A stretch of 64,000 bases of DNA from an uncultured Clostridia bacterium (GCA_964548075.1 CAZJQQ010000005.1:64252-128251), one strand, 5' to 3'. Shown: positions 47,999 through 62,100, counted from the stretch's first letter. The notes: generated from the sequence alone by a model not told the origin. Program-made: numbers and translations.

Positions 47999-49023
<1,025 letters not shown>

Positions 49024-49024
<1 letters not shown>

Positions 49025-50271
49025 TATGCCTCCTCCATCGCGGGCCGGCCGTCAGCCGCAACGTCAGTCGTTGATTTTGAATCCTTGAACGTCAAGACAA
49101 ACAACAAAGCAACGAGCGCGGCGAACCCAGCGGGGATGTACCAGATCATTCGCCAATCCTTCACCCCATTCACCGTGAACAGCTCGACAATGTTGCCGCT
49201 AAGCGCCGACCCAATGCCAAGACCCACACCGTATGTGATCAACGCGATGAGCCCCTGCGCGCTTGCTCTAGTCTCCTTCGGCGATTTTCTGTCGGTATAG
49301 ATTTGGCCCGTCACGAAGAAGAAGTCGTAGCAGATGCCGTGCAGGAGAATGCCCGCATAGAGCATCCACGCTCCGCTTCCGAGGTTGCCGTTTGCAAAGA
49401 GCGCGTACCGAACCACCCACGCAAGCATCCCGATCAGCAAAGTCTTTTTCACACCTAACCGCACGAGAAACCACGGCATCAATACCATGAACGCAACTTC
49501 GGACATCTGACCCATTGTCTGTTTTCCGGCAGCGCCTTCCATATGAAGATCGTTGAGAAAAGGGTTCGCGAAGCTGTAGTAGAATGCCAGCGGTATCGAG
49601 ATCAATAGTGAGCAAACCACGAAGATCAAAAATGATCGCTCTCTCATCAATCGCAGAGCTTTCACACCGACGACCTCGCCGAACGTGACTTGCTTGCCGA
49701 CATTCTGCGGCGGCGTGTTGGGCAGGGTGAACGAATACAACCCCAGCAACACCGAAGCTATGCCGGCCATCTTCATCGGCAGCTCGCTCTTTTCAACGTC
49801 CGCGAGAAAATGGAACTGAATCAAGGTGATCGTCAGCCCCGCTACGATCCAACCGATGGTTCCCCAAACACGGACTCGTGGGAACTCTCTATCAGGACTC
49901 TTCATTTGATGAAACGACACTGCGTTGACCAGCGCGAGCGTCGGCATGTACGTCAGGTTGTAGAGCAGCAACAGCAGAATGAGAGGTCCCGTAGCCGTGC
50001 TGTTGGCGGCGAAGTGCATGATCACACCACCCAGCAAATACAAAACGCCCATGACCTTCTGCGACGCAAAATAGCGGTCCGCTATCATCCCAACGAAGAA
50101 CGGCGAGATGATCGCCGCAATGTTGTTCATCAGATATGCGTTTCCGATTTGCCTGCCGCTGAATCCGATGTTGCCCAGGTGCGTTCCAAGTGTCACAAAC
50201 CACGCGCCCCAGACAAAGAACTGCAGGAACATCATCAGACTGAGTCGAGCGTAGGTCTTCGCATCCATCAA
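49024..50271 (-). CDS. MFS transporter, nucleoside:H+ symporter (NHS) family-like
   Basis: 12 TM segments; N-terminal [26 protein letters not shown] typical of NupG/XapB-like permeases. Confidence 0.7.
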
Positions 50272-50300
50272 GCGTTCTCCTCAGTGCAAAGATTCCCAAA

Positions 50301-50351
50301 CACAAAGGCACAAAGCCACGAAGGTTCGCTTTGTGGCTTTGTGCCTTTGTG
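50301..50351. terminator. 19-bp perfect stem hairpin followed by T-rich tracts on both strands (intrinsic terminator after the DUF1080 gene)
   Basis: cacaaaggcacaaagccac (50301-50319) pairs with gtggctttgtgcctttgtg (50333-50351), loop 13 nt. TTTATTT follows on the plus strand and TTTGGGAATCTTT on the minus strand. Confidence 0.55.
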
Positions 50352-50352
50352 T

Positions 50353-50970
50353 TTATTTGATCTCTTTCACTCGCACGCTTCTGAACGACACCCGCGAAGT
50401 CGGATCGTGGTTCTGCAAACCAATGTAGCCCTCGATGCCGCGTGTGCCGTCAAACTCGTTCACCTTCTCGCCGTTCAGCACCACGGTGTAGTGCTGGCCC
50501 ACGATGGTGATCTGATACTTGTTCCACTCGCCGGCCGGCTTTGACGCAAGCCTTGTCGCTGCAAACTGGTCGTAAGCAGATCCAGTCTGAAACTTCAGCC
50601 CGTTCTTGTCGCAGTCATCAATCTGGATCTCGTAGCCCTTGGTGACCGCGTGCCACGGGTCATCGCTCTTCTCAGGAAAGCGAACAAAGATGCCCGAGTT
50701 ATTGCACTTGTTGTTCACCTTCCATTCGACCTCGAGCGTGTAATCCCGAAACGATCGCGTCTCGTAGAAGAGCAGTCCCATCCCGGCCTGAGTCACGAGT
50801 GCTCCGTCTTCGACCGCGAAACTTCCCTTTCCGATATGCTTCCACCCCGTCTGGTCTTTGCCGTTGAACAGCTCGATCCATTTGCCCGAGGGCTTTGTCT
50901 GCGGCATCGCAAACGCAGCAAGCGCTAAACTCAAGGCCAGCCCTGTTACTAACAATGTTTGTCTTCTCAA
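50353..50970 (-). CDS. DUF1080 (3-keto-disaccharide hydrolase-like) secreted protein
   Basis: Conserved DUF1080 core (WIELFNGKDQTGWKHIG...GYIGLQNHD). Proposed TTG start after RBS gggagg gives a Tat-like signal LRRQTLLVTGLALSLALAAFA. Upstream track codons lie in an AT-rich repeat region and are unlikely to be coding. Confidence 0.65.
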   Translation of the reverse strand: MRRQTLLVTGLALSLALAAFAMPQTKPSGKWIELFNGKDQTGWKHIGKGSFAVEDGALVTQAGMGLLFYETRSFRDYTLEVEWKVNNKCNNSGIFVRFPEKSDDPWHAVTKGYEIQIDDCDKNGLKFQTGSAYDQFAATRLASKPAGEWNKYQITIVGQHYTVVLNGEKVNEFDGTRGIEGYIGLQNHDPTSRVSFRSVRVKEIK

Positions 50971-51037
50971 CGTCGTCCTCCCGGCAATCCAAAATCGACA
51001 ATCACACAAATCGCAAATCGCAAATGTAAATCCAAAA

Positions 51038-52726
51038 TCACAGATTTCCCTTCTTGTGCTCTTCAACGATGTACTCACATGCTCGAACCGTCAGCGCCAT
51101 CATCGTCAGCGTAGGATTCTGACAACCGATCGACACGAAACACGCCCCGTCGGTCACGAACAGGTTCTTCACATCCCAGCTCTGATTGAACCGGTTCAAC
51201 ACCGACGTCTTCCGGTCGGCGCCCATGCGCGCGGTGCCGACTTCGTGAATGCACAAGCCCGGCGGCGCCAGGGTTTCACTCGCACGTGCCACCTCGAACC
51301 CCGCTTCGAGAACCATCTCCTTTATGCTTTCGAGCGCGTCGGCCGCCATTGCGCGTTCGTTGTCGCCGTGCGAGCAGTCGATGTGCGCCGCCGGAATTCC
51401 CCACTTGTCTTTGACGTTCTTGTTGATCGTCACGCGATTCTCTTTTCGCGCGAGCATCTCGCCCCACATCCCGATCGAAAACGGCGCGGCGTCCTTGACC
51501 TCGCGCACCATCTTCTTGAACTCGGAGCCGAAACCGGGAATCTGTTTCAAATTGGTCGGCAGCATCCCGCGTTGAGAGCTGCCTTGCATGCCGTACCCGC
51601 GAATGAATTTCGGATGCCGCTCGTTGACGTTTCGGAATTTCGGAATGTATATGCCGTTCGCACGTCCGTCGTCGTAGTTGTAAGGATACTTCGAAACCGC
51701 CGGCACGAGCCCGCTGACTCCGATCTGGAAGATATGATCCATCAGGTATTGACCCAGGACGCCCGACGAGTTTCCGAGCCCCGCTGGGTGCTGCCGCGTA
51801 GCGCTGTTCAGCAGCAAACGAGTCGATTCAATCGTCGAAGCGCAGAGCACGACGACTTTGCCGAAAACCTCGAACGCCTTCTTTGTCACCTGATCGATGC
51901 AGGCGATGCCTGTTGCTTTGCCGGTCTTGGCATCGACAATGACGTGACTCGCCACGGCGTTTGTACGCATTGTGAGCCTGCCGGTCTTGGCCGCGGCGGG
52001 AAGCGTCGAACCGGGACTGCTGAAATAAGAATAGGTCGAGCACCCCCGATCGCAATGCCCGCAGTAGTGACACGCCGCTCGGCCGTTGTGTCTTTGGGTC
52101 AGGATTGCTGTGCGGCCGATGGTGACTTTGCGATCTTTCCAGCGACGTTCGACTGCTCTCTTCAAGAGCTGCTCACCGCAGGTCATCTTCATCGCGGGAA
52201 GAAACTTTCCATCGGGAAGATTGGGAACGTTCTCGTAGGCGCCGCTGATGCCAACGAATTCTTCGACCTTGTCGTAGTAGGGCGCGAGTTCGGCGTAGGA
52301 AATCGGCCAGTCGACGTCGTAGCCGTCGCGGCTCGCGGCTTTGAATTCGTAATCCGACAAGCGATAGCTCTGGCGGCCCCAGGTGATCGTGCGCCCGCCT
52401 ACCTGCCGCCCACGAATCCAATCGAACGGCTTTCGATCAGCCGTGGTGTAAGGGTTATCGACATCGTCGACGAAGAACTGGTTTCCGTAGGCGTTACACG
52501 CGTAGCACTTTGATTGGACTTTTTGGCGCGCGCGGCTGGCGGCGGTGTATCGATCTCTGGCTTCGTAGGGAAACAGATGTTCTGTGAAATCCTTCTCCGG
52601 ATCGAGATTGCGCCCGGCTTCGAGCACGATCACGCGCATGCCTTTTTCGGTGAGCTCTTTCGCAGCCCACCCGCCAGTCGCGCCCGAGCCGACAACTATC
52701 GCGTCGTAGATTTCTTGTTTTGCCAT
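51038..52726 (-). CDS. GMC family FAD-dependent oxidoreductase
   Basis: [19 protein letters not shown]ossmann motif and a GMC C-terminal region (HEVGTARMG); 562 aa. Confidence 0.85.
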
Positions 52727-52761
52727 TCGGCGTCTCGCTATTCACGCTGACCGCAATACGA

Positions 52762-53025
52762 CTACCTGCGATAGACTTCGCTTCGATGCGCCACCTTAAC
52801 GATCGTTATGGCTACACCCTTGGCGTCGACTTCATAGATGACTCGGTAAGAACCCTCTCGAATCCGGTAAGTGTGTTCGGAGCCCTCCAGCTTGCGCGTG
52901 CCGACCGGATGTGGGTCGACTGCAAGAGCGTCAACCGCGGCAATGATTCGGGGAATCATGTCTTTAGGAAGATTCCTGAGTTCTTTGGCCGCAGAGCGCT
53001 TCCACTCGATCTCAAATGAGGCCAT
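52762..53025 (-). CDS. type II toxin, RelE/ParE family
   Basis: 87 aa: MASFEIEWKRSAAKELRNLPKDMIPRIIAAVDALAVDPHPVGTRKLEGSEHTYRIREGSYRVIYEVD, a typical plasmid-stabilisation toxin fold signature. Confidence 0.75.
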   Translation of the reverse strand: MASFEIEWKRSAAKELRNLPKDMIPRIIAAVDALAVDPHPVGTRKLEGSEHTYRIREGSYRVIYEVDAKGVAITIVKVAHRSEVYRR

Positions 53026-53212
53026 CCCGTTTCAACTCGGCAACCAGATCCCTGTGGGAGACAGTCGGTTCGTCACGCCGTTCGGCCGCAGACGCGAGGT
53101 CCTCAATGTCCTCGATCAGCTCTTGGAATCGATCGATCGGCAGTATGACCGCAGTCTTCTCCCCGGCTTCGTTTGTTACGTACTGCAGCTCAAGGTGCTT
53201 TATGTCCAACAT
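53012..53212 (-). CDS. type II antitoxin (Phd/YefM-like)
   Basis: Start chosen at MLDIKHLELQYVTNEAGEKTAVILPIDRFQELIEDIEDL; overlaps the toxin start by 14 nt. Confidence 0.6.
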   Translation of the reverse strand: MLDIKHLELQYVTNEAGEKTAVILPIDRFQELIEDIEDLASAAERRDEPTVSHRDLVAELKRDGLI

Positions 53213-53256
53213 GCTACTGCTCCAATACCATCTCCGCGCCGTGGTTGGGCGACGCT

Positions 53257-53976
53257 TCAATTCTTACCACTGGCCGCCAGCACCTGAAGCTGGATCAACA
53301 TCAGCCAAGTGCTGAGCCAGTTCATGAAGCCGGGCGTAGCCACGAGAACTCCGTGGTCGTCTCGGAAGGCGATACCGGCGATGCATGACGAAAATGATCC
53401 GTGAGAGAGCGCGTTCCTAATGCGTCTCACGTAGTCGGAGTTTAGTAGTTTCCGAATCTGTCCACAACATGGATTGCCATCTCGGGCACCTTCCCCAATA
53501 AGGTCGGTGAGTGTCCCTTCGCGCATATAAACTAGGGCCACATAAAGTCGAAGGACGAGAGACCCTTGGACTGTCATCCTGACTTTTACTGGGAGAGGTA
53601 GATCGAGTTGTTTGTCGAAAGGTGTTTTCGGAATCCCACCGTCACGACGATCGAGCGAGCTGGCGAGCGCAAACCAGAACACGCCACTTGATAGTTCCTC
53701 GAACTGCCGATCAGAAGTCAATGAGAAAGCAGAGATCTCACGCAGCAACTCCTCGCCAGTGAGGCGATTCGCGAGGTCATCAAGAATCCTACGACAAGCC
53801 TGAAATTGTCGTCGCAGTAGCGGATCGCTGAGCGCAGTGCTGAGAAGATTGGATTCTTGCGAAGAAACGGAATCGTCCCCAATTAATGCACTGACGTTAA
53901 GTCCAGCAGGAGGCCCTTCGTCGGTCATGCCATTTGCTGCATAGAAGTCGCGGAGAAGATTCCCAATATCATCCAT
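53257..53976 (-). CDS. hypothetical protein with HEPN-like R-N-x-x-x-H-G motif (possible Abi-like RNase)
   Basis: C-terminal VRRIRNALSHGSF matches the Rx4-6H HEPN motif flanked by N and G. Local GC about 52%, lower than the neighbours; adjacent to the RelE/antitoxin pair. Confidence 0.3.
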   Translation of the reverse strand: MDDIGNLLRDFYAANGMTDEGPPAGLNVSALIGDDSVSSQESNLLSTALSDPLLRRQFQACRRILDDLANRLTGEELLREISAFSLTSDRQFEELSSGVFWFALASSLDRRDGGIPKTPFDKQLDLPLPVKVRMTVQGSLVLRLYVALVYMREGTLTDLIGEGARDGNPCCGQIRKLLNSDYVRRIRNALSHGSFSSCIAGIAFRDDHGVLVATPGFMNWLSTWLMLIQLQVLAASGKN

Positions 53977-54007
53977 GGCGATTCCCACGTGTGTCGCCCA
54001 ACATACG

Positions 54008-54874
54008 CTAGCCAAGACCGAGCTTCAAAACTCCCCTCAGTGTTTCCTCGGCGTCTTTTGACGGCTTGAACTCCAACCCTACGAAGCCCTGATAACCAGT
54101 CGCAGCGATCGCGCGAAACACGTTCGCGTAATTCATCTCGCCTGTTCCAGGCTCGTGACGCCCCGGCACGTCGGCGACGTGAAAGTGAGCGATCTTCGAG
54201 ATGTTCTTGGTGATGTCCGCGATCACGTTCCCTTCCATGATCTGGTGATGATAGATGTCAAATAGCATCTTCACCGCCGGGCTGCCGACCTCATCGAGTA
54301 TCTCGAAACCTTCCTTCGCCGTCTCCAAGTAATAGCCCGCATGATCGACCTTGGTGTTAAGCGGTTCGAGCACGAGCGGGATCTGCGCGAATTCAGCCAG
54401 CGGCGCGACAGCCTTTAGCGCCGCTACGTAACCCGCGTGCTGCTCCGCTCGAGAAAGCTGCTTGTCCTCATTGCCGGTCGTTACGATCAGCGTTTTCGCG
54501 CCCAGACGTTTGGCCGCCGCGAGCGAGGCTTGAATATTCGACATAAAAGTCTTGCGAGCCTCGTCGGTGAACAACGGCTTCCAGCCCGAGCCCATGATCG
54601 TAGCTATCTCGAGCCCAAGCTCGTTCTTCTTGCGAATGATCGCGTCCACGTCTTTGTTCCGCCACTCCCAAAACTCGAAGGCGGGATAGCCGAGCCGCTT
54701 TACTCGCTCCATCCGTTCGAGGAATGGAAGATCGGTCATGATCATGTCGATGCAGACCGAGAGCCTTACGGGGCTCGACTTGGTCTGTGGAAATGATCGG
54801 GCGATCATTGGCGCCGCCGCGAATAACGCCGACGCGCCTGCTGCCTGCTTGAGAAAATGCCTACGATTGAGCAT
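54008..54874 (-). CDS. Tat-exported sugar phosphate isomerase/epimerase (xylose isomerase-like TIM barrel)
   Basis: Tat signal MLNRRHFLKQAAGASALFAAAP; TIM-barrel family metal-site pattern (…FEFWEW…, HFHVADV). Confidence 0.8.
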   Translation of the reverse strand: MLNRRHFLKQAAGASALFAAAPMIARSFPQTKSSPVRLSVCIDMIMTDLPFLERMERVKRLGYPAFEFWEWRNKDVDAIIRKKNELGLEIATIMGSGWKPLFTDEARKTFMSNIQASLAAAKRLGAKTLIVTTGNEDKQLSRAEQHAGYVAALKAVAPLAEFAQIPLVLEPLNTKVDHAGYYLETAKEGFEILDEVGSPAVKMLFDIYHHQIMEGNVIADITKNISKIAHFHVADVPGRHEPGTGEMNYANVFRAIAATGYQGFVGLEFKPSKDAEETLRGVLKLGLG

Positions 54875-54886
54875 ACCAACAACTCC

Positions 54887-55771
54887 TTACGATAGAGTGC
54901 GCTTCAGATACTCAAAGGCCGTTCGCGTTCCCTCGATTGGGTTTGCCGATTCCGGCTCGTATTCAATGTTTGCAGCGTACTTGAATTTGATCTGCTTTAG
55001 CAGCTTCATTGTCTCGGCTATCGGCGTCGCCGCTTCGCCGAATCTTCGCTGTGTGTGATCCGCGTCTTTGTCTCTGTCCTTGATGTGAAGACTCACAATG
55101 CGTTTGTGATGCTCGCGAATGTACGACACCGGATCAAACCCCGCCGCATAAAAGTGCCCGACATCAAGATTGATGCTCAGATACTCGGACGCGCCCTTCA
55201 ACGCGCTCGCGAAATCATCCGGCGTTTCAAACTCCTGACTCCTGTTCCCCTTGAATCCTGCGTAGCCAAACCAGTGATTGTGCAGCCCGAGTTTGATTCT
55301 GTATTTCTGGCACCACTGATCGAGCTTTGGCACGATCGGTTTCTTCACCGACGCGGTCATCACGTTGGTTCCGAGCAGCAGCGCGCCGTTGAATCCGCGA
55401 TCCAGATAATCGTCCTTTGAGTCGACGGGAAAGTTCACGCAATAAGCGCCGACACGAATCCCGGCGTCGTCGAACTTCTTCTTGATCACCTTGAAATCGG
55501 CCTCAGAGGCCTTTCCTGGGTTCAGGTGTCCGTCCCACAGCTCGATGTTGCTCAAGCCGATGGCGACCATCGCTTCAATCATCTTATCGACGCTGAAAGC
55601 GCGGAACGTGTAGCTCTGCACTCCGACTTGAATGCCGCCGAATATCGAAGGTTTTACTTTGTCGCTTGGTGATCTGAACCCAAACCCGGTGACTGCTCCG
55701 GCCAATCCCAAACCGAATTGTCTTCGTGTGATTTGTTCCACAGTGGTCCCCTTTCTATTCCAGTGCTTCAT
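54887..55771 (-). CDS. Tat-exported sugar phosphate isomerase/epimerase (xylose isomerase-like TIM barrel)
   Basis: Internal start MKHWNRKGTTVEQITRRQFGLGLAGAVTGFGF (Tat motif), then the TIM-barrel family pattern (…NIELWDGH…, LGLHNHW…). Confidence 0.75.
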   Translation of the reverse strand: MKHWNRKGTTVEQITRRQFGLGLAGAVTGFGFRSPSDKVKPSIFGGIQVGVQSYTFRAFSVDKMIEAMVAIGLSNIELWDGHLNPGKASEADFKVIKKKFDDAGIRVGAYCVNFPVDSKDDYLDRGFNGALLLGTNVMTASVKKPIVPKLDQWCQKYRIKLGLHNHWFGYAGFKGNRSQEFETPDDFASALKGASEYLSINLDVGHFYAAGFDPVSYIREHHKRIVSLHIKDRDKDADHTQRRFGEAATPIAETMKLLKQIKFKYAANIEYEPESANPIEGTRTAFEYLKRTLS

Positions 55772-55847
55772 AAAGCGGGCGCGAATGCGTGGCATCATAG
55801 TGGAAGACTCTGCAAAGCGCAAAGGCCAGAAAAGCAAGGGCAGAAGA

Positions 55848-55923
55848 GCATGGAGTTCAGGCTTTAGCCTGGTCTTGGCTCGGCCAATCAGAACGAACAC
55901 AGGCTAAAGCCTGAACTCCATGC
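55848..55923. promoter_or_regulatory. 23-bp perfect inverted repeat in divergent promoter region (candidate operator or palindromic element)
   Basis: catggagttcaggctttagcctg (55849-55871) pairs with caggctaaagcctgaactccatg (55900-55922), 28-nt spacer. Located between the divergently transcribed isomerase (start 55771) and GMC oxidoreductase (start 56023). Confidence 0.5.
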
Positions 55924-56022
55924 ATCTTCTATCTCGGCGCTTTGCCCTTTGCTCTCTTCTGCTTCTCTGTGATAGCTTCTCGCGCGTCAACCATCTAGTA
56001 CACGCTCACGCCGGAGGCCGCA

Positions 56023-57732
56023 GTGGCACAGCAGAAGACCTACGACGCAATAATCATCGGCTCGGGCGCCACCGGCGGGATGGCCGCAAAAGAACTCACC
56101 GAGCGCGGCATGCAAGTGCTCGTGCTCGAAGCCGGCCCGCCCGTGAATCCCGCACGCGACCTCAGCTCCCACCGCTGGCCTTTCCAGTCCATGTATCGCG
56201 GCTTTGGCGCGCCCGGTTGGAAAGACCAGGATCAATGGATGCAAGCGACCGCCGGCGAGTTTAGCCGCCAGTTCTACGTCAAAGACACCGAGCATCCTTA
56301 CACCACCGATCCGGGCAAACCCTTCCTCTGGGTGCGGGCGCGAATCGTCGGCGGGAAGACGCTTCACTGGGGACGCATGTCCTATCGGCACTCGGACCTT
56401 GATTTCAAAGCCGCCAGCAACGACGGCTTCGGCGACGACTGGCCAATTAGCTACCAGGAACTTGCCCCGTACTACGACAAAGCCGAAGAGTTCATAGGCG
56501 TGAGCGGAAACCGCGACGGCTTGCCGCACCTGCCCGACGGAAACTTCATGCCGCCCATGAAGCTCAACTGCGGCGAGCACCTCCTGCGCAAAGGCGCGGA
56601 GAAAGTTGGACGGCGCGGAATCCCAATGCGGCTGGCGATGCTCACCGGACAGCCCAAGGCCCATATGAAAGGGCGCCTGAAGTGTCACTACTGCGGCAAC
56701 TGCGGCGACGGCTGTGATGTTGGAGCGATGTTCAACTCGCTCAGTTCGACGCTGCCGGTGGCTGAAGCGACCGGCCGGATGACGCTCCGGCCCAATTCGA
56801 TTGTCCGGCACATAATCGTCGACACAAATACGAGCAAGGCCAAAGGCGTCGCCTTTGTAGATCGAGTCACTCATCAGGAGTATGAGGCAGTTGGCAAAAT
56901 AATCGTGCTCGGCGCGTCGACTCTCGAATCGACTCGCATTTTGCTCAACTCGAAGTCGCGGCAGCATCCGAATGGACTTGGCAATTCCTCGGGCAAGCTG
57001 GGTCATTACTTGATGGACCACTTCGGCGGAATCGGCGCGAGCGGCTACTTCAACGTGCTCGCCAGCCGCGATCCGGTGAATGAAGACGGCAAGACTTCCG
57101 GCTTGCTGATACCCCGGTTCCGCAACGTGAGCAAAGAAACAAAGCAGCAGCGTTTTGTTCGCGGCTACGGGTTCGAGTGTGGTTCGGGCGCGCGCATGTT
57201 TCCCGCGTTCGTCAAGAACCCGGCGGTGACGCCCGGCTTCGGCTCGGAATTCAAACAGCGAGTGCGGCGCTACTACACGACTCCGGTGAGCCTGACGACT
57301 CGCGCAGAGATGCTCGCGCGGATTGAGAACTACGCGGAGATCGACCCGGCTGGCGTCGTCGACGCGTGGGGCATACCGGTGTTGAAGATCCACATCCAGT
57401 ACTCGGACAACGAGCGCGAGATGGCTCGCGACGCCGCGCAAACCAGCGAAGAGATACTTCGCGCAGCGGGCGCAGAGGTTGTCTCGACTGGAGGCCGTAT
57501 GACCGCGCCGGGGCGGATCATTCACGAGCTGGGCACTGCGCGCATGGGCAATGACCCGAAGACGTCGGTGCTGAACAAGTTCAATCAGAGTTGGGACGTG
57601 AAGAACTTGTTTGTAATTGACGGCGCATGCTTCGTTACGAGCGCGAACCAGAACCCGACGCTTACGATGCTGGCGCTGACGATGCGCGCGTGTGATCGAC
57701 TCGCGGATGAGTACAAGAGAGGGAATCTTTAA
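56023..57732 (+). CDS. GMC family FAD-dependent oxidoreductase (paralog of 51038-52726)
   Basis: YDAIIIGSGATGGMAAKEL and a GMC C-terminal region (HELGTARMG); 569 aa. Confidence 0.85.
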   Translation: MAQQKTYDAIIIGSGATGGMAAKELTERGMQVLVLEAGPPVNPARDLSSHRWPFQSMYRGFGAPGWKDQDQWMQATAGEFSRQFYVKDTEHPYTTDPGKPFLWVRARIVGGKTLHWGRMSYRHSDLDFKAASNDGFGDDWPISYQELAPYYDKAEEFIGVSGNRDGLPHLPDGNFMPPMKLNCGEHLLRKGAEKVGRRGIPMRLAMLTGQPKAHMKGRLKCHYCGNCGDGCDVGAMFNSLSSTLPVAEATGRMTLRPNSIVRHIIVDTNTSKAKGVAFVDRVTHQEYEAVGKIIVLGASTLESTRILLNSKSRQHPNGLGNSSGKLGHYLMDHFGGIGASGYFNVLASRDPVNEDGKTSGLLIPRFRNVSKETKQQRFVRGYGFECGSGARMFPAFVKNPAVTPGFGSEFKQRVRRYYTTPVSLTTRAEMLARIENYAEIDPAGVVDAWGIPVLKIHIQYSDNEREMARDAAQTSEEILRAAGAEVVSTGGRMTAPGRIIHELGTARMGNDPKTSVLNKFNQSWDVKNLFVIDGACFVTSANQNPTLTMLALTMRACDRLADEYKRGNL

Positions 57733-57740
57733 ACTTTTTT

Positions 57741-57832
57741 GGACTGCGGCGGGAAGGTACTCCGCGACGCCGCTTTTTCTCTGCGAATCGGAAACAAAAG
57801 CGGCGTCGCGGAGTACCTTGCCGCCGCAGTCC
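57741..57832. repeat. 36-bp-stem palindrome 8 nt after the GMC stop (REP/MITE-like or protein-binding site)
   Basis: ggactgcggcgggaaggtactccgcgacgccgctttt pairs with aaaagcggcgtcgcggagtaccttgccgccgcagtcc (1 mismatch), loop about 18 nt. It generates identical N-termini in two artefactual track ORFs (MDCGGKVLRDAAF). Confidence 0.55.
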
Positions 57833-57850
57833 AAATCCGCCGCAGCCTAA

Positions 57851-58477
57851 ATGAAGGTCGAGGGAGCGATGTTCGGACGAGCACAGAAACGAGCGAAGCT
57901 GGGAGCCGTTGCGAAACCCGCTAAGTTGCATTCGATCGCGGCGAAGATGCGCGAGCGCAGTTTCGCCGGCCGCTTCGATGTCGCCGGTGTCAGCTACAGT
58001 TTCACTTACTCTCCTGCGAAGGCGGCAGTGGAGGGTGTCAAACTCCAGCTAACCGGAAACTTGACCGTAATTGACGGACGCCCCAACGCTCGCGTTCCTC
58101 CGCGCGATCTTCGCAACGTTCGAGCCACGCTGGTTGCAACTCAAGGCGGGATTGGAACTGCGCCGCCGCGCAAGAAGCTACCAGCTGACATTACCACGCC
58201 TCGCGCCGATTTGCCTGTTGTCGAAAGCACCGGCTCGCTTTCGTTTTGCGGCGTGCTCTACTTTAAATTCGCGCCGTTGGAAGGCCGGGCTTTGGGCGTG
58301 CCTGCGGATATGAGGCAGTTACAATTGAACGTGCGGTTAGCGCCAGTCAACGAAGTTGAGCGGGGACTTCAGGGCGCGTTCAGTTCAATAGTCGACGCTC
58401 TTTACGGGAAACAGGTTGATGGGTCTTCGGCTGAGGCGGCGGTCAGCGAGCTTAACAAACTACTCGGCGGTAATTGA
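57851..58477 (+). CDS. hypothetical protein
   Basis: 208-aa ORF with no recognisable motif; an alternative start MFGRAQ lies at 57869. Confidence 0.3.
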   Translation: MKVEGAMFGRAQKRAKLGAVAKPAKLHSIAAKMRERSFAGRFDVAGVSYSFTYSPAKAAVEGVKLQLTGNLTVIDGRPNARVPPRDLRNVRATLVATQGGIGTAPPRKKLPADITTPRADLPVVESTGSLSFCGVLYFKFAPLEGRALGVPADMRQLQLNVRLAPVNEVERGLQGAFSSIVDALYGKQVDGSSAEAAVSELNKLLGGN

Positions 58478-58613
58478 TCCGCGCTCGAATCCTGGGGGCT
58501 CTGAAATCCTTCGAGACAAGCGTTGTCTTGCGAGGCAAAAAAAACGGATGCTAGAATGCTTGCGGTCCAAGAAACGCGTTTGGGCCTGAAGCAAAGCATG
58601 TTGAGTCAGATCT

Positions 58614-58655
58614 GGCGGCGTAGCTCAGGTGGTTAGAGCGTGGGATTCATAACCC
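58614..58655 (+). pseudogene. tRNA-Met(CAT) 5' half (acceptor 5' strand, D-arm, anticodon stem 5' strand and loop); truncated tRNA gene
   Basis: ggcggcg ta gctc aggtggtta gagc g tggga ttCATaa then ccctac. There is no complementary 3' anticodon stem, T-arm or 3' acceptor strand downstream. Confidence 0.55.
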
Positions 58656-59144
58656 TACTCAATGCTCGTCCTTCCTTTTCTATCTAAGTCTAAAACGTTC
58701 TATCTACTGCGATTTGTAGCCAGCCGGATTGCAATCAATTTCGATGGACTACCACCCTTTTCTACAAAGTCCTGCCACATATATGCCACAATGTGGCAAG
58801 GTGTAGGTGAGCGAAATCGTGTCGCTCAATACAAGTCCCGAGTTGTTTTCATAAGCGCCGCGAAGATGAATTGTTCCGAACAGGTCCTTAGCTTGGTGAT
58901 CCTTAGGTTGTTGTGTGAAGGAAGGCAAGCTCGACGAGGCCAAGAAATGCCGAAGTCGTCGATCAGGTTAGGTGATCACAGGCTGCCGGAGAACTGTTGA
59001 AACGGTCGTTCAGGTCCTCGGCGCGAGCGTAGTACCATCCTGACCGTGCGAGACTGGCGCTGTGCGAACGGTGCTCCTCCGTGATTGGGTCCGATGTGAG
59101 CATCAGGCGACAAGCAATACCTACCCGAGGCCTGTCCCTCGCGA

Positions 59145-62100
59145 TCATGTCAGTTTGTAATGCACGATGAGATAGAGGTCCTCCACTTCAGGTGGGTTCT
59201 TAGTGAGCCTTCCGTAAGCCGGTGACGGGCCTGCTGACGGTGGGAGGCTTGGCGTCGGATTCTGTTTTAGTTTCACAGTCATTGGCTTGGCGATATCCAG
59301 ATCTACCAGGTTGGTGCCAGCAGTGGTCGTGTCAGACACGTCTATCGTTGCGATTTTCAGTTTGTCGTAAGAATCCTTAGTCAGCATGTTGATGTCTGAA
59401 GATGTGATGGCGACCTCAGGGTTAGTATTACGTCTCACGTAGGAAATCATCGTCTGGTAAGCCCCCGGCTGCGTACACCTCGCAAGGACTTCGATCTTCA
59501 TCACGACGACATTCCAGTCTTGCGCGAAGAACGGAAACCGCTCCTTCCCCAGGGTGAAGGACAGGATTTGTTCAGCGCCTTCGGCGGTGGGGTGCAAGAA
59601 CCTGTACCACTCGGTCGAGAACTCGTGCTTCATGCTAAACATCTGCATCAATGGCGATTCAGTCAGTGCGGCGGTGTTCCTCAGGAACTCCTTCGTGTCG
59701 GTCGTAGCTTTGTCCTTGAAGGGGCCGCCGTTTTCTCTTGCCGTGTAGTCGAGATGCAGAATTACGTCGGAGATAGTCGCATAGTCGAATTGCCGCAGCT
59801 CTTTTTCCGTCGACAGCTCGATTTGCCACTCGCTGATTGCGCCCGCCCGTTCGAACGGCAAATAGCGCTCGTCGCGGAAATTGAATTCAAACATACCGGA
59901 GTCGTTCTGGGCCGTGCTGGTGGCGATGGCGGTTACCGGCGTGTGATTCGTGCGGAAACGGACATCGTCAATCGGCAGTCCCTGATCGCTTTCGTGCTCG
60001 TAGTTGCCTGCGCCGTTCATCGTCGTGTTGATGCGAACTGAATTATTCAACAACCGCAATGAACAGCTCACGGAGGAGTAAGGCCCAACGACACAGGGGA
60101 TGGAGAGTCGCACTGCCTTGATACGCCTGAAGTAATGGCCGCGGAAGTCGAGATCGAACAACTCTTCGGGCAGAGACACGTGGCAGGTGCCGGTCTCGCG
60201 CAACTCGATAAGCGCAAGAGGATTGAGCCTTGCGAGTGAAACGCTCTTGGCCAGTTCAAGCTCGCGGCGATTTTCTTCGAGGTAGGATTTCTCTAACTGC
60301 CGTAGCGCCAATTGCAGCTTGTCGCCGGAAATCAAACCCTGTGTCGAGTTATCCCAATAGCCGTACTGGATGAAGCTCGCCGTTTCCGTTCCCATTTCGT
60401 ACTGGTAGGCCTTCTCCACTTTCTTGGCCATGTCGTAAGCGAGGTTGTAGCTCTGCTTGTACACAGCGAAGAGCTGTTCCTTCATCCACTGGTACAACTC
60501 CTGGTTCGTGAACTTGTCCTTGAGGAACAGCTCCACTTCTTTCGCGTTTTTGATCTGTTGCTTGTGGTTCTCCAACTCCTTTTGCGTCACCTGGACTCTA
60601 ATGTCTGCCGAGGTGATTTGCTTATCGAGTTGAATAATCTCTCTCGCCGCCAGATTGGCCTGCAGTGTCCAGTCCTGCTCACGGCGGATGTAGCCGGCCA
60701 TTTTCGCAGCCAGAACAGCTTGATGAGAGCTGAATCCTCCGATGAATTCGAATACCTTTCCCGCAGAACTCAGCGCATTGCCTAGTTGAGTGCCCCCCCA
60801 GAGCAAGCCTGCTCCAAGACCAATGGGTTTGAAATCTGGGGTTATCGTGGGAAAGAGATGCGCCAGCCCCGACAGCTGCTCCATTGCCTGGGCAGCTATC
60901 TGCCAATCACGAGCAGTATTGATGCTATCTATTTCGTCTTTTTCCCTTCGAATCAGCTTCACACCATTCTCGTCGCTATTGACCAACGACACATCCACAT
61001 CCGCTCTTATAGTCGCGATAGTTGTGTCGGCCGGCAGTTGGCCGTCAGCGGTCAACGTGGCGCTTATCGTCGGCACGGCGGGAACGGTGACGGAAACGTT
61101 GCCGAGCAGGTCCTTTAGGTAATGTTGCAAACGGAAAGATGCGGTCTCTCTCACCTTCAGCAGATTCTCCTTACCCGCCTTCGCCTCAAGCACCTGGCGT
61201 TCCTTGATGGCAGTCATCAGCTCGAGCATCTGCGTTTCGTGCGAGGCACGCAAACGGCCGAGCTCCTCGCCGTCCTTTTTCTCGAGCGCCGATAGCAGCG
61301 CGTTCCCCAGCGCTTTCACGTCTGAACAAAACTCGTTGGCCTTCTGAATGAGAAACGAGAACCGGTAGATCGGCGCTGGGCTGCTGAGGTCGGCGAGGAT
61401 GCTGCCGAGGCTCAAGCCCTGCGAGGCGGCCAGAATGAGCGCGGCCGGATCGATGGGCGGCGCAAAGAGCGCCAGCTTGCGCTCGACGCCGTCGAGGTTT
61501 TGGCAATGGCGGATCTTGAATAACCGGTCCGCCACCGTATCCCAATACTCGAGCAACTTTTCGTTAGGAGGAATGCAGAAGTACAACGCCGATCCAACGC
61601 CAAGCAAATTTGTGCCGGTAGAAGAATCGCTGACGCTCGCTTCGCTGCTGTAGGGAAAAAGATTTTCAAGCTGGACCAGAGCGTTCGAGAAATCGTCCCA
61701 CTTGTCTTTGAGGCTCTCGTACGACTCGGCTTTGATCTCCCCGCGCTTCGGGACAAACTCGGGACGCGGTCCCAAAATGTGGTTGGCAATCACGTAAATC
61801 TGAAGCGCTTCGTTCACGCTTTCCATCGTGTCTTGCCGGAACAAGGAATCGCCCCAGGCCACCAGGTTCTCTACATACTTCATGACCACGTGTTTCATGT
61901 AGGCCAGCGGGCGGTTGGCGGCGACCAGGTGCGGGTCAAACGGATTTTTTCGCCACTCGGCAATGACGGGGTCTTCGGTATTCGTACTGGGTGACAAGCT
62001 CCGGAACCAGTCCTCGAGGTTTCGCGCGGGCGTCGTTTTGAACGGAAGCACTTTCCAGTAGCGGGAGGTTTCCGATTCCCCGGCGCCTGGCATTGCATCG

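Follow-up and report, generated by a model that had tools for sequence, protein, structure and literature searches.

The 5′ half of a tRNA-Met(CAT) gene as the probable left end of a genomic island inserted at the anticodon stem-loop in Blastocatellia

INTRODUCTION

A tRNA gene that keeps its promoter and its first half and then stops at the anticodon stem-loop raises the question of whether the rest was deleted, or whether the gene was cut at that place by an inserted element. Such a half gene stands at positions 58614-58655 (+) of the stretch of DNA analysed here, 64,000 nt long and called the window below. Tyrosine integrases of the lambda type bind a core site together with repeated sites in the arms of attP, and group I introns lie in the anticodon loop of cyanobacterial tRNA-Leu and tRNA-fMet and of the tRNA-Ile(CAU) of Azoarcus. 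Among 3919 islands with a tDNA fragment in Islander, 3760 carry a 3′ and 159 (∼4%) a 5′ fragment (PMC4383910), which agrees with a preliminary description of the window in which retention of the 5′ part was called the less common outcome; 2083 islands have an anticodon-centred attP (PMC4383910; Hudson, Lau & Williams 2015). The Islander rule for a 5′ fragment places it upstream of the full tDNA, in the same orientation and on the same replicon, at a distance of 2-200 kb (PMC4383910). An attachment-site class at the anticodon loop is credited to Williams 2002 in the summaries of PMC4383910 and bioRxiv 10.1101/2020.11.02.365908, and islands at the 5′ end of arg2 in Klebsiella pneumoniae were exceptional among the islands studied there (bioRxiv 10.1101/2020.11.02.365908).

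RESULTS

The segment is an exact 5′ half of a tRNA-Met(CAT) gene

The 42 bases of the segment (GGCGGCGTAGCTCAGGTGGTTAGAGCGTGGGATTCATAACCC) are identical, 42 of 42 and starting at +1, to linear positions 1-42 of the intact tRNA-Met(CAT) gene of Blastocatellia (Acidobacteriota), for which the gene from 16 genomes served as reference. The match runs from the acceptor 5′ strand through the D arm, the 5′ strand of the anticodon stem and the loop into the first 3 bases of the stem 3′ strand, and every part recognised in the preliminary description (acceptor 5′ strand, D-arm, stem 5′ strand and 7-nt loop) lies inside it. In 100 shuffles of the window the 42-mer found no match with up to three mismatches allowed; with the exact match, this supports the earlier view of a genuine tRNA-Met(CAT) 5′ fragment that ends at the anticodon stem-loop. 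The window holds no second copy of the 42-mer and no 3′ half or other piece of the same tRNA, and no T-loop motif GGTTCRANYC occurs within 50 kb of the fragment, in line with the T-loop and 3′ half having been described as missing. ARAGORN detected no complete tRNA, intron-containing or otherwise, anywhere in the 64-kb window, the Rfam tRNA model scored 16.9 bits on the fragment against a threshold of 29, and Rfam gave no family at threshold in the window, group I introns included; permissive thresholds brought up no intron or other structured RNA either. A match to an unrelated structured RNA was likewise found neither with Rfam nor in a consensus fold.

The bases after the loop had been thought unable to pair with TGGGA. 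This does not hold, as CCCTA pairs with TGGGA at four of five positions (T-A, G-T, G-C, G-C), and the A-C mismatch of the stem is also present in the intact tRNA, whose stem 3′ strand is CCCCA. The fragment thus contains a nearly whole anticodon stem-loop and is broken off directly behind it.

When 185,579 species genomes were scanned for the exact pattern, the 39-nt 5′ half turned up at 20 places, nearly all of them in Blastocatellia. Sixteen are intact tRNA-Met(CAT) genes of 75-77 nt, three (loci L004, L005 and L016) are fragments and not genes, and no genome among the 16 with this tRNA has more than one intact copy that matches the pattern. Loss of this apparently single-copy tRNA without restoration would probably be costly. 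The D arm, the variable loop (AGGTC) and the T arm (GGTTCAAGTCC) are closer to E. coli isoleucine tRNAs than to elongator tRNA-Met, a resemblance that applies to the fragment and to all intact copies (e.g. L039 10806-10882). The gene may code for a lysidine-modified tRNA-Ile2(CAU), in which case it would be essential as well as single-copy.

Table 1. Positions of the features discussed in the text (window coordinates unless a contig is named)
Feature	Position	Strand	Basis or remark
GMC oxidoreductase, host backbone left of the junction	56023-57732	+	collinear in L039 and L037
p208, 208-aa protein, host backbone	57851-58477	+	collinear in L039 and L037; no Pfam match
Predicted tRNA-Met promoter, orphaned: TTGCGA, 18-nt spacer, TG-extended TAGAAT	58528..58557	+	sigma-70-like prediction
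Displaced host 5′ tDNA, tRNA-Met(CAT) linear positions 1-39 through the loop	58614..58652	+	exact match
Anticodon-stem 5′ strand TGGGA	58641-58645	+	match to intact gene
Anticodon loop TTCATAA	58646-58652	+	match to intact gene
Putative attachment-site core: TGGGA, TTCATAA, CCCTA	58641..58657	+	seven-junction comparison
Conserved element arm ('module'), ∼139 bp	58653..58791	+	homologous after the fragment in six other loci
Direct repeats TTCTATCTA, two exact copies, 20 nt apart	58678-58686, 58698-58706	+	repeat search
Third, degenerate copy CTTTTCTAC	58757-58765	+	repeat search
Direct repeats TGCCACA, two copies, 11 nt apart	58773-58779, 58784-58790	+	very end of the arm
Inverted copy TGTGGCA	58792-58798	+	window only
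First island gene: C-terminal 1608 aa of a 3451-aa TcA-like toxin subunit	59145..64000	−	ORF; runs off the window end
Fragment and intact tRNA-Met, JBGQGO010000003.1	872 and 34804	same strand	distance 33.9 kb
Fragment and intact tRNA-Met, CAVXWP010000013.1	152488 and 160063	same strand	distance 7.6 kb

The same host locus carries an intact gene in relatives

Left of the fragment the window holds host backbone (56023..58477), which is collinear and 80-90% identical at the nucleotide level in L039 and L037 and also syntenic in L011, L021 and L005; a Pfam search with p208 gave no match. On the 87-kb contig L039, where p208 is 78% identical, collinearity with the window runs over 48000-58655 at 80-90% nucleotide identity. 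Behind p208 this contig has the promoter of the window (TTGCGA ... TGCTAGAAT), which an intact tRNA-Met gene follows, and similarity to the window breaks off precisely at 58655, at tRNA position 42. Relatives with intact tDNA at the unoccupied site are therefore at hand in L039/L040 and in L021, a more distant relative with the same arrangement, and the ∼139-bp sequence that follows the fragment in the window is absent downstream of the tRNA in L039 and L021. On the 3′ side of its tRNA, L039 has a stretch of ∼6.65 kb with malate synthase, isocitrate lyase and other genes; a short motif that resembles a canonical integrase end stands before this stretch.

The predicted promoter of Table 1 is the only sigma-70-like site in 58300-59300, and the same prediction is found before the intact tRNA in L039/L040 and L021 and before the fragment in L005; it is the putative native promoter of the tRNA-Met gene. 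As the locus now stands, it faces the island interior, toward the 3′ end of the convergent toxin gene (59145, minus strand), and no terminator-like site is predicted before 59182. The orphaned promoter could give rise to read-through or antisense RNA.

A third allele is seen in L037/L038, in which promoter, tRNA, fragment and arm are all absent, similarity to the window ends at 58511, and RHS/YD-shell (TcB/TcC-like) toxin genes directly abut p208 (L037 10534-20382). Further upstream, two small overlapping ORFs in the window (52762-53260, minus strand) resemble a ParE/RelE-type toxin and its antitoxin; the syntenic genes of L037 match Pfam ParE_toxin and RelB-like families, and L039 has none at that position.

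One breakpoint and one arm recur in seven loci

In seven independent loci the same breakpoint in the tRNA is followed by the same ∼139-bp arm, and the cargo is unrelated each time. The arm is 76-91% identical in the six other loci (L004, L005, L016, L022/23, L024 and L025/31), and the sequences on either side of it are unrelated. In this sample, which is biased toward perfect copies as several loci were found by exact-match patterns (3 of the 7 junctions with a pattern that requires a perfect 5′ half), the junctions do not differ at any position as far as the last base of the loop, and the differences between elements begin immediately beyond it (CCCTA, CCCCA, TCCCG, ACCGC). Because the identity runs through the loop and the variation sets in from the next base, the crossover would lie within the 7-nt loop TTCATAA. 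The junctions thus have the form of the anticodon-loop class of attachment sites, in which shared sequence ends at the loop and the element keeps an imperfect copy of the stem 3′ strand. A breakpoint and an arm that recur in seven loci are the signature of a site-specific event. Between the two origins that had been proposed for the fragment, deletion after integration or an unusual site-specific event, the latter is upheld by this recurrence and the deletion is not.

Comparison of the window with L005 showed that the fragment is identical at 41 of 41 positions and the adjacent upstream intergenic region at 78%; the perfect match would agree with a displacement, recent or independent, from a gene that is under selection. 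Some junctions (L004, L016, L024 and L025/L031) have an integrase remnant before the 5′ half and the module. These remnant-bearing junctions would be the expected leftovers of successive insertions into the rebuilt tRNA, after which the older integrase copies would decay.

Conservation of the arm comes in short blocks separated by variable spacers, and it ends at the TGCCACA repeats. The two exact copies of TTCTATCTA are the TTCATCTA-type repeats of the arm; in an alignment of eight sequences the columns of this repeat are invariant and the spacer between the repeats is variable. An 18-mer of the arm, TGCCACAAATATGCCACA, is found again in many of the integrase genes, inside the coding sequence at the 3′ end and 67-84 nt upstream of the intact tRNA. 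The repeats are candidate protein-binding sites, and the block conservation, with one weak hairpin that lacks covariation, leads us to read the module as protein-binding DNA and not as RNA. Since the heptamer repeats of integrase end and arm end do not always match (L026, L035), a role as arm-type binding sites stays putative. On these features 58653..58791 would be the integrase-distal arm of attP and would mark the left end of the island.

Metagenome contigs were scanned with a strict module pattern, which missed the copy in L026; the scan returned four more contigs, and in all of them the module is joined to the same tRNA 5′ half. The arm pattern had no match in IMG/VR viral contigs, and a phage origin of the arm was dropped on this ground. 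The idea that the arm is exclusive to the 5′ half was refuted by L026, where it is joined to the 3′ half. A 112-aa ORF (58662-59000) was rejected as a gene, as its ATG is absent in L016 and L022 and substitutions are clustered in blocks and do not fall on every third base. We also considered a sigma-54 promoter in TGCCACAAATATGCCACA and dropped it, since the same 18-mer lies inside the C-terminal coding region of integrases. Its reverse complement (TGGCAT-N5-TGGCA; window 58773-58790) has the spacing of a sigma-54 -24/-12 element and is also found in the integrase 3′ ends of L015, L017, L028, L029 and L036, and a sigma-54-type (NtrC-like) activator gene adjoins the motif in L017 and L004. The spacing is probably a coincidence, because the motif lies within coding sequence.

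In relatives the far end carries a rebuilt tRNA and an integrase gene or remnant

The island of the window was followed to the end of L001, and the geometry of the far end comes from relatives. A search of the window and of the adjoining 4.5 kb of L001, with ∼10 kb of visible island, found no integrase homologue. An intact tRNA-Met gene lies downstream of the fragment and on the same strand in two of the two contigs that are long enough to show the far end (Table 1), and on both a tyrosine integrase gene or remnant ends just before this tRNA. The left flank of the JBGQGO contig is the p208 locus, as in the window, and the sequence directly after its intact tRNA is 88.6% identical to L039 17540-18458, beside NiFe-hydrogenase genes. 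Hence the 33.9-kb insert has chromosome on both sides, and its limits coincide with the fragment on the left and the rebuilt tRNA on the right. L005 has the host locus of the window, an 88%-identical arm and a restored tRNA. A direct repeat of the 3′ half had been predicted at the far boundary; the repeat found there is the 5′ half, inside the intact rebuilt tRNA-Met gene downstream on the same strand. Recombination within the 5′ half can yield no other order than this one, fragment and then tRNA, and the Islander rule for 5′ fragments asks for the same order. The empty site in L039, the recurrent junction, and the integrase and tRNA at the far end all bear out the earlier attribution to tRNA-targeted integration, and the segment 58614-58655 is most probably the host's original tRNA-Met 5′ half, displaced by an island that inserted from the 5′ side.

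In L004 (JBBPIH010000005.1, fragment at ∼134,462, minus strand) 134 kb of sequence downstream of the fragment yielded no intact tRNA that begins with the exact 39-nt 5′ half, and the sole match to the intact pattern in that genome lies in a different contig (L015). The missing partner could be due to a variant 5′ half, to rearrangement or to an error in binning; the exact-match scan would miss variant 5′ halves such as those in L027, L030 and L036.

Integrases of the 5′ side and their canonical counterparts

The conserved sequence upstream of the intact tRNAs was at one point taken for a non-coding attP arm, a reading that was rejected as it consists of the 3′ end of a tyrosine integrase gene, running in the direction of the tRNA, and a spacer; the integrase stop codon lies 17-47 nt before tRNA +1. 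C-terminal integrase remnants stand there in L002, L004, L008, L009, L010, L017, L018 and L025 (the last matching Pfam PF00589), and called integrase genes have the same arrangement in L029 (263 aa) and L030; it is also seen in the 7.9-Mb genome L036. None of the 5′-side integrases seen was demonstrably intact and full-length: all are remnants, are truncated at a contig end or have the N-terminal part in a different frame, and this family may be largely fossil. An N-terminal segment (..WYYRF.IRGVRYGRAIPEARTK..) without Pfam match is present in L007, L009 and L029. Many integrases are called as ORFs of 263-265 aa that start from the same internal MRE(I/L) motif (L009, L026, L027, L029, L035), with the N-terminal ∼100 aa that hold this segment missing or in another frame (e.g. 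L029 645-842 vs 973-1764); repeated decay, sequencing error or a conserved frameshift could account for the split.

[quoted passage not shown] L026 and L035 have the order integrase, spacer, reverse-complemented tRNA 3′ half, TTATGAA, TCCC and module, suggestive of an attP or of a junction within a tandem array. The module of L026 is ∼92% identical to that of L016, the similarity continues for ∼450 bp beyond it, and both have the pairing arm TCCCG beside the loop. The spacer after the integrase stop (TAAGTnnTnGATAGnAnnGG) is homologous in both arrangements. With shared arms, the two arrangements thus differ only in the tRNA-derived piece between them, a direct 5′ half in one and a reversed 3′ half in the other; in effect the stem-loop core is turned round with respect to the arms. 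Within the 5′-side group the catalytic domains of the integrases share 68-80% identity; their identity to the canonical L026/27/28 group is 57-68%, and to a third lineage, which lies downstream of the tRNA in L006, L007, L009 and L013, it is 38-47%.

Two integrase genes pointing at the tRNA-Met that lies between them are seen in L009, L029 and L036 (10001-11847), one of the 5′-side lineage and one of the canonical 3′-side lineage. In L034 (8817-9775) a 306-aa integrase of the same family, with the same TGCCACAAATCTGCCACA motif and a TAGATAG spacer, ends inside a tRNA-Thr(CGT) gene that runs in the same direction, and hence the 5′-side form has also changed its tRNA target.

Cargo differs between loci

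The toxin gene that begins the island of the window continues to ∼12806 in L001, a contig 99.96% identical to the window. The full protein has the Pfam domains VRP1, PA14, ABC_toxin_N, Neuraminidase and TcA_TcB_BD, and its homologues are named Tc toxin subunit A, the best database relatives being 66% identical. Baseplate/contractile-injection-like genes are the cargo in L005; a regulator, a secreted protein and IS elements make up that of L016. In L004 the cargo consists of unidentified ORFs, with no integrase among them. On the 3′ side of the tRNA-Met in L030 (787-10752) stands a BREX defence system (BrxE, BrxA, BrxB, BrxC and a PglX-like protein), with only a short reverse-complemented integrase-end motif between tRNA-Met and BREX.

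DISCUSSION

We consider it probable, and well ahead of an even chance, that the fragment is the attL of an island integrated at the tRNA-Met anticodon stem-loop by a tyrosine integrase, the attP of the element carrying the tRNA 5′ half. In such an element, unlike most of its kind, the 5′ half would follow directly on the 3′ end of the integrase gene. By analogy with lambda integrase and with the sublocation classes of Williams, the integrase would bind the near-symmetric arms of the anticodon stem and exchange strands within TTCATAA. Integration would then restore a whole tRNA gene at the right end, where integrase, short spacer, element 5′ half and host 3′ half would follow one another, and the promoter and 5′ half of the host would be left stranded at the left end, joined to the integrase-distal arm. 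Everything to the right of ∼58652 would be island, beginning with the TcA-like toxin gene, and the integrase and rebuilt tRNA of this island would be expected beyond the window end.

Other origins have to be weighed against this one. An element of the canonical kind could have recombined in antiparallel, or such an element, once integrated, could have inverted between its two ends; in both cases the host 5′ half would come to adjoin the same arm, the tRNA would be destroyed and 3′ halves would be left head to head at the other junction. Of the 7 bases of the loop, 4 agree with its reverse complement (TTATGAA), the stem arms on its two sides come close to symmetry, the similarity of L016 (5′ half) and L026 (3′ half) described above, in arm, ∼450 bp and TCCCG, shows that the two configurations recently exchanged parts, and the far junction of the window lies beyond the visible sequence. 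Yet both contigs in which the far junction is seen show integrase remnant, spacer and intact tRNA, a palindrome of 3′ halves is seen in no locus, the loss of a tRNA that is apparently single-copy per genome would be costly, and L005, at the same host locus and with its similar arm, has the tRNA restored. We therefore hold this origin to be unlikely. Another possible origin is canonical 3′-side integration, or an unrelated rearrangement, followed by chance deletion of the tRNA 3′ half, and deletions do occur at this locus, as L037/L038 have lost promoter, tRNA and arm. However, random deletion would not repeat one breakpoint and one 139-bp sequence in seven loci with differing flanks, and the arm can be recognised as an attP arm beside the integrase gene of L026; a deletion is thus very improbable.

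Equally slight is the chance that promoter, tRNA half and the 139 nt together form a functional RNA gene, an intron-interrupted tRNA or one half of a split tRNA. The native promoter is kept, the 41-nt fragment is fully conserved between the window and L005 next to far less conserved upstream sequence, and one small hairpin of the arm is kept in most copies. Against this, Rfam matched nothing, group I introns included, and the 3′ exon that an intron or split tRNA calls for is not in the window. The consensus fold of eight arm copies has 11 pairs, an unfavourable covariation term (+0.41) and one compensatory change, and conservation in short repeated blocks with variable spacers is typical of protein-binding DNA. 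In L026 the same arm stands with the opposite tRNA half and in opposite orientation, which fits a DNA site and not one RNA, and the perfect 5′ half is explained by its recent displacement from a gene under selection.

An attL left by 5′-side integration has close parallels. The 5′-fragment islands of Islander share with it an end fragment of the cognate tDNA, here exact over positions 1-42 from +1, its place upstream of the full tDNA in direct orientation (here in relatives), a tyrosine integrase inside the island (here in relatives), a crossover at the anticodon loop (here putative) and tandem arrays. They differ in that the hosts here are uncultured Blastocatellia with an undescribed integrase lineage whose 3′ end lies against the 5′ end of the tRNA, and that in the window itself the fragment end is the visible part of the island. 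Hence the 5′-side insertion type is already known, as a minority type, and no new mechanism is involved. The Klebsiella arg2 islands likewise lie upstream of their tRNA gene and have the recombination site in its 5′ half, but that site is formed by acceptor 5′ strand, D-stem and D-loop and not by the anticodon loop, and phylum and tRNA are others. A phage said to integrate at a 5′ end was discarded as a parallel, its target being the protein gene rimO. Closest to the 5′-side elements are the canonical ones of L026, L027, L028 and L035, with related integrases (57-68%), a homologous spacer, the same kind of integrase-distal arm and the same tRNA-Met stem-loop core; these, however, carry a reverse-complemented 3′ half between the arms, lie on the other side of the tRNA and displace a 3′ fragment.

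As in lambda-type systems, the attP would span ∼250-300 bp with conserved arms around a short core and repeated short arm motifs, and an HTH_17 excisionase-like gene adjoins the integrase gene; the differences are that binding to the repeats is putative here, that the N-terminal region belongs to no Pfam family and that the heptamers do not always agree. With tRNA genes that harbour a group I intron the locus has in common an interruption at the anticodon loop of a tRNA gene with a CAT anticodon, whereas here there is neither an intron RNA signature nor a 3′ exon, and in relatives 7.6-34 kb, with coding genes on both strands, separate the fragment from the nearest intact 3′ half.

A wider reading, that one integrase family with one pair of arms uses the near-palindromic tRNA-Met stem-loop in both orientations and so gives rise to 3′-side islands and to their mirror-image 5′-side islands, is offered tentatively, as a possibility that falls a little short of even odds. 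A turn of the core, along with the tRNA half that the element carries, may convert one configuration into the other and back, as suggested by L016 and L026, which share so much of arm and adjoining sequence and differ in the tRNA half that they hold. Should this reading be right, it would show in a natural case how a tRNA-targeting element can change its side of insertion. What goes beyond the textbook is the finding of mirror-image attP architectures in one integrase family at one tRNA gene.

The displaced half gives an exact left boundary of the island (∼58652/58653), with a Tc-type toxin as first gene, and displacement explains why half a tRNA stands behind a good promoter. Such 5′ fragments should be scored neither as pseudogenes of unknown origin nor as tRNA genes, and island finders that expect only 3′ fragments will miss the islands that they mark. 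For the Blastocatellia, the tRNA-Met gene is a two-sided hotspot that takes up toxin, contractile-injection, BREX and metabolic cargo and is served by at least three integrase lineages, and the mirror-image pair of attP sites is a compact natural system for how the target orientation of an integrase is set.
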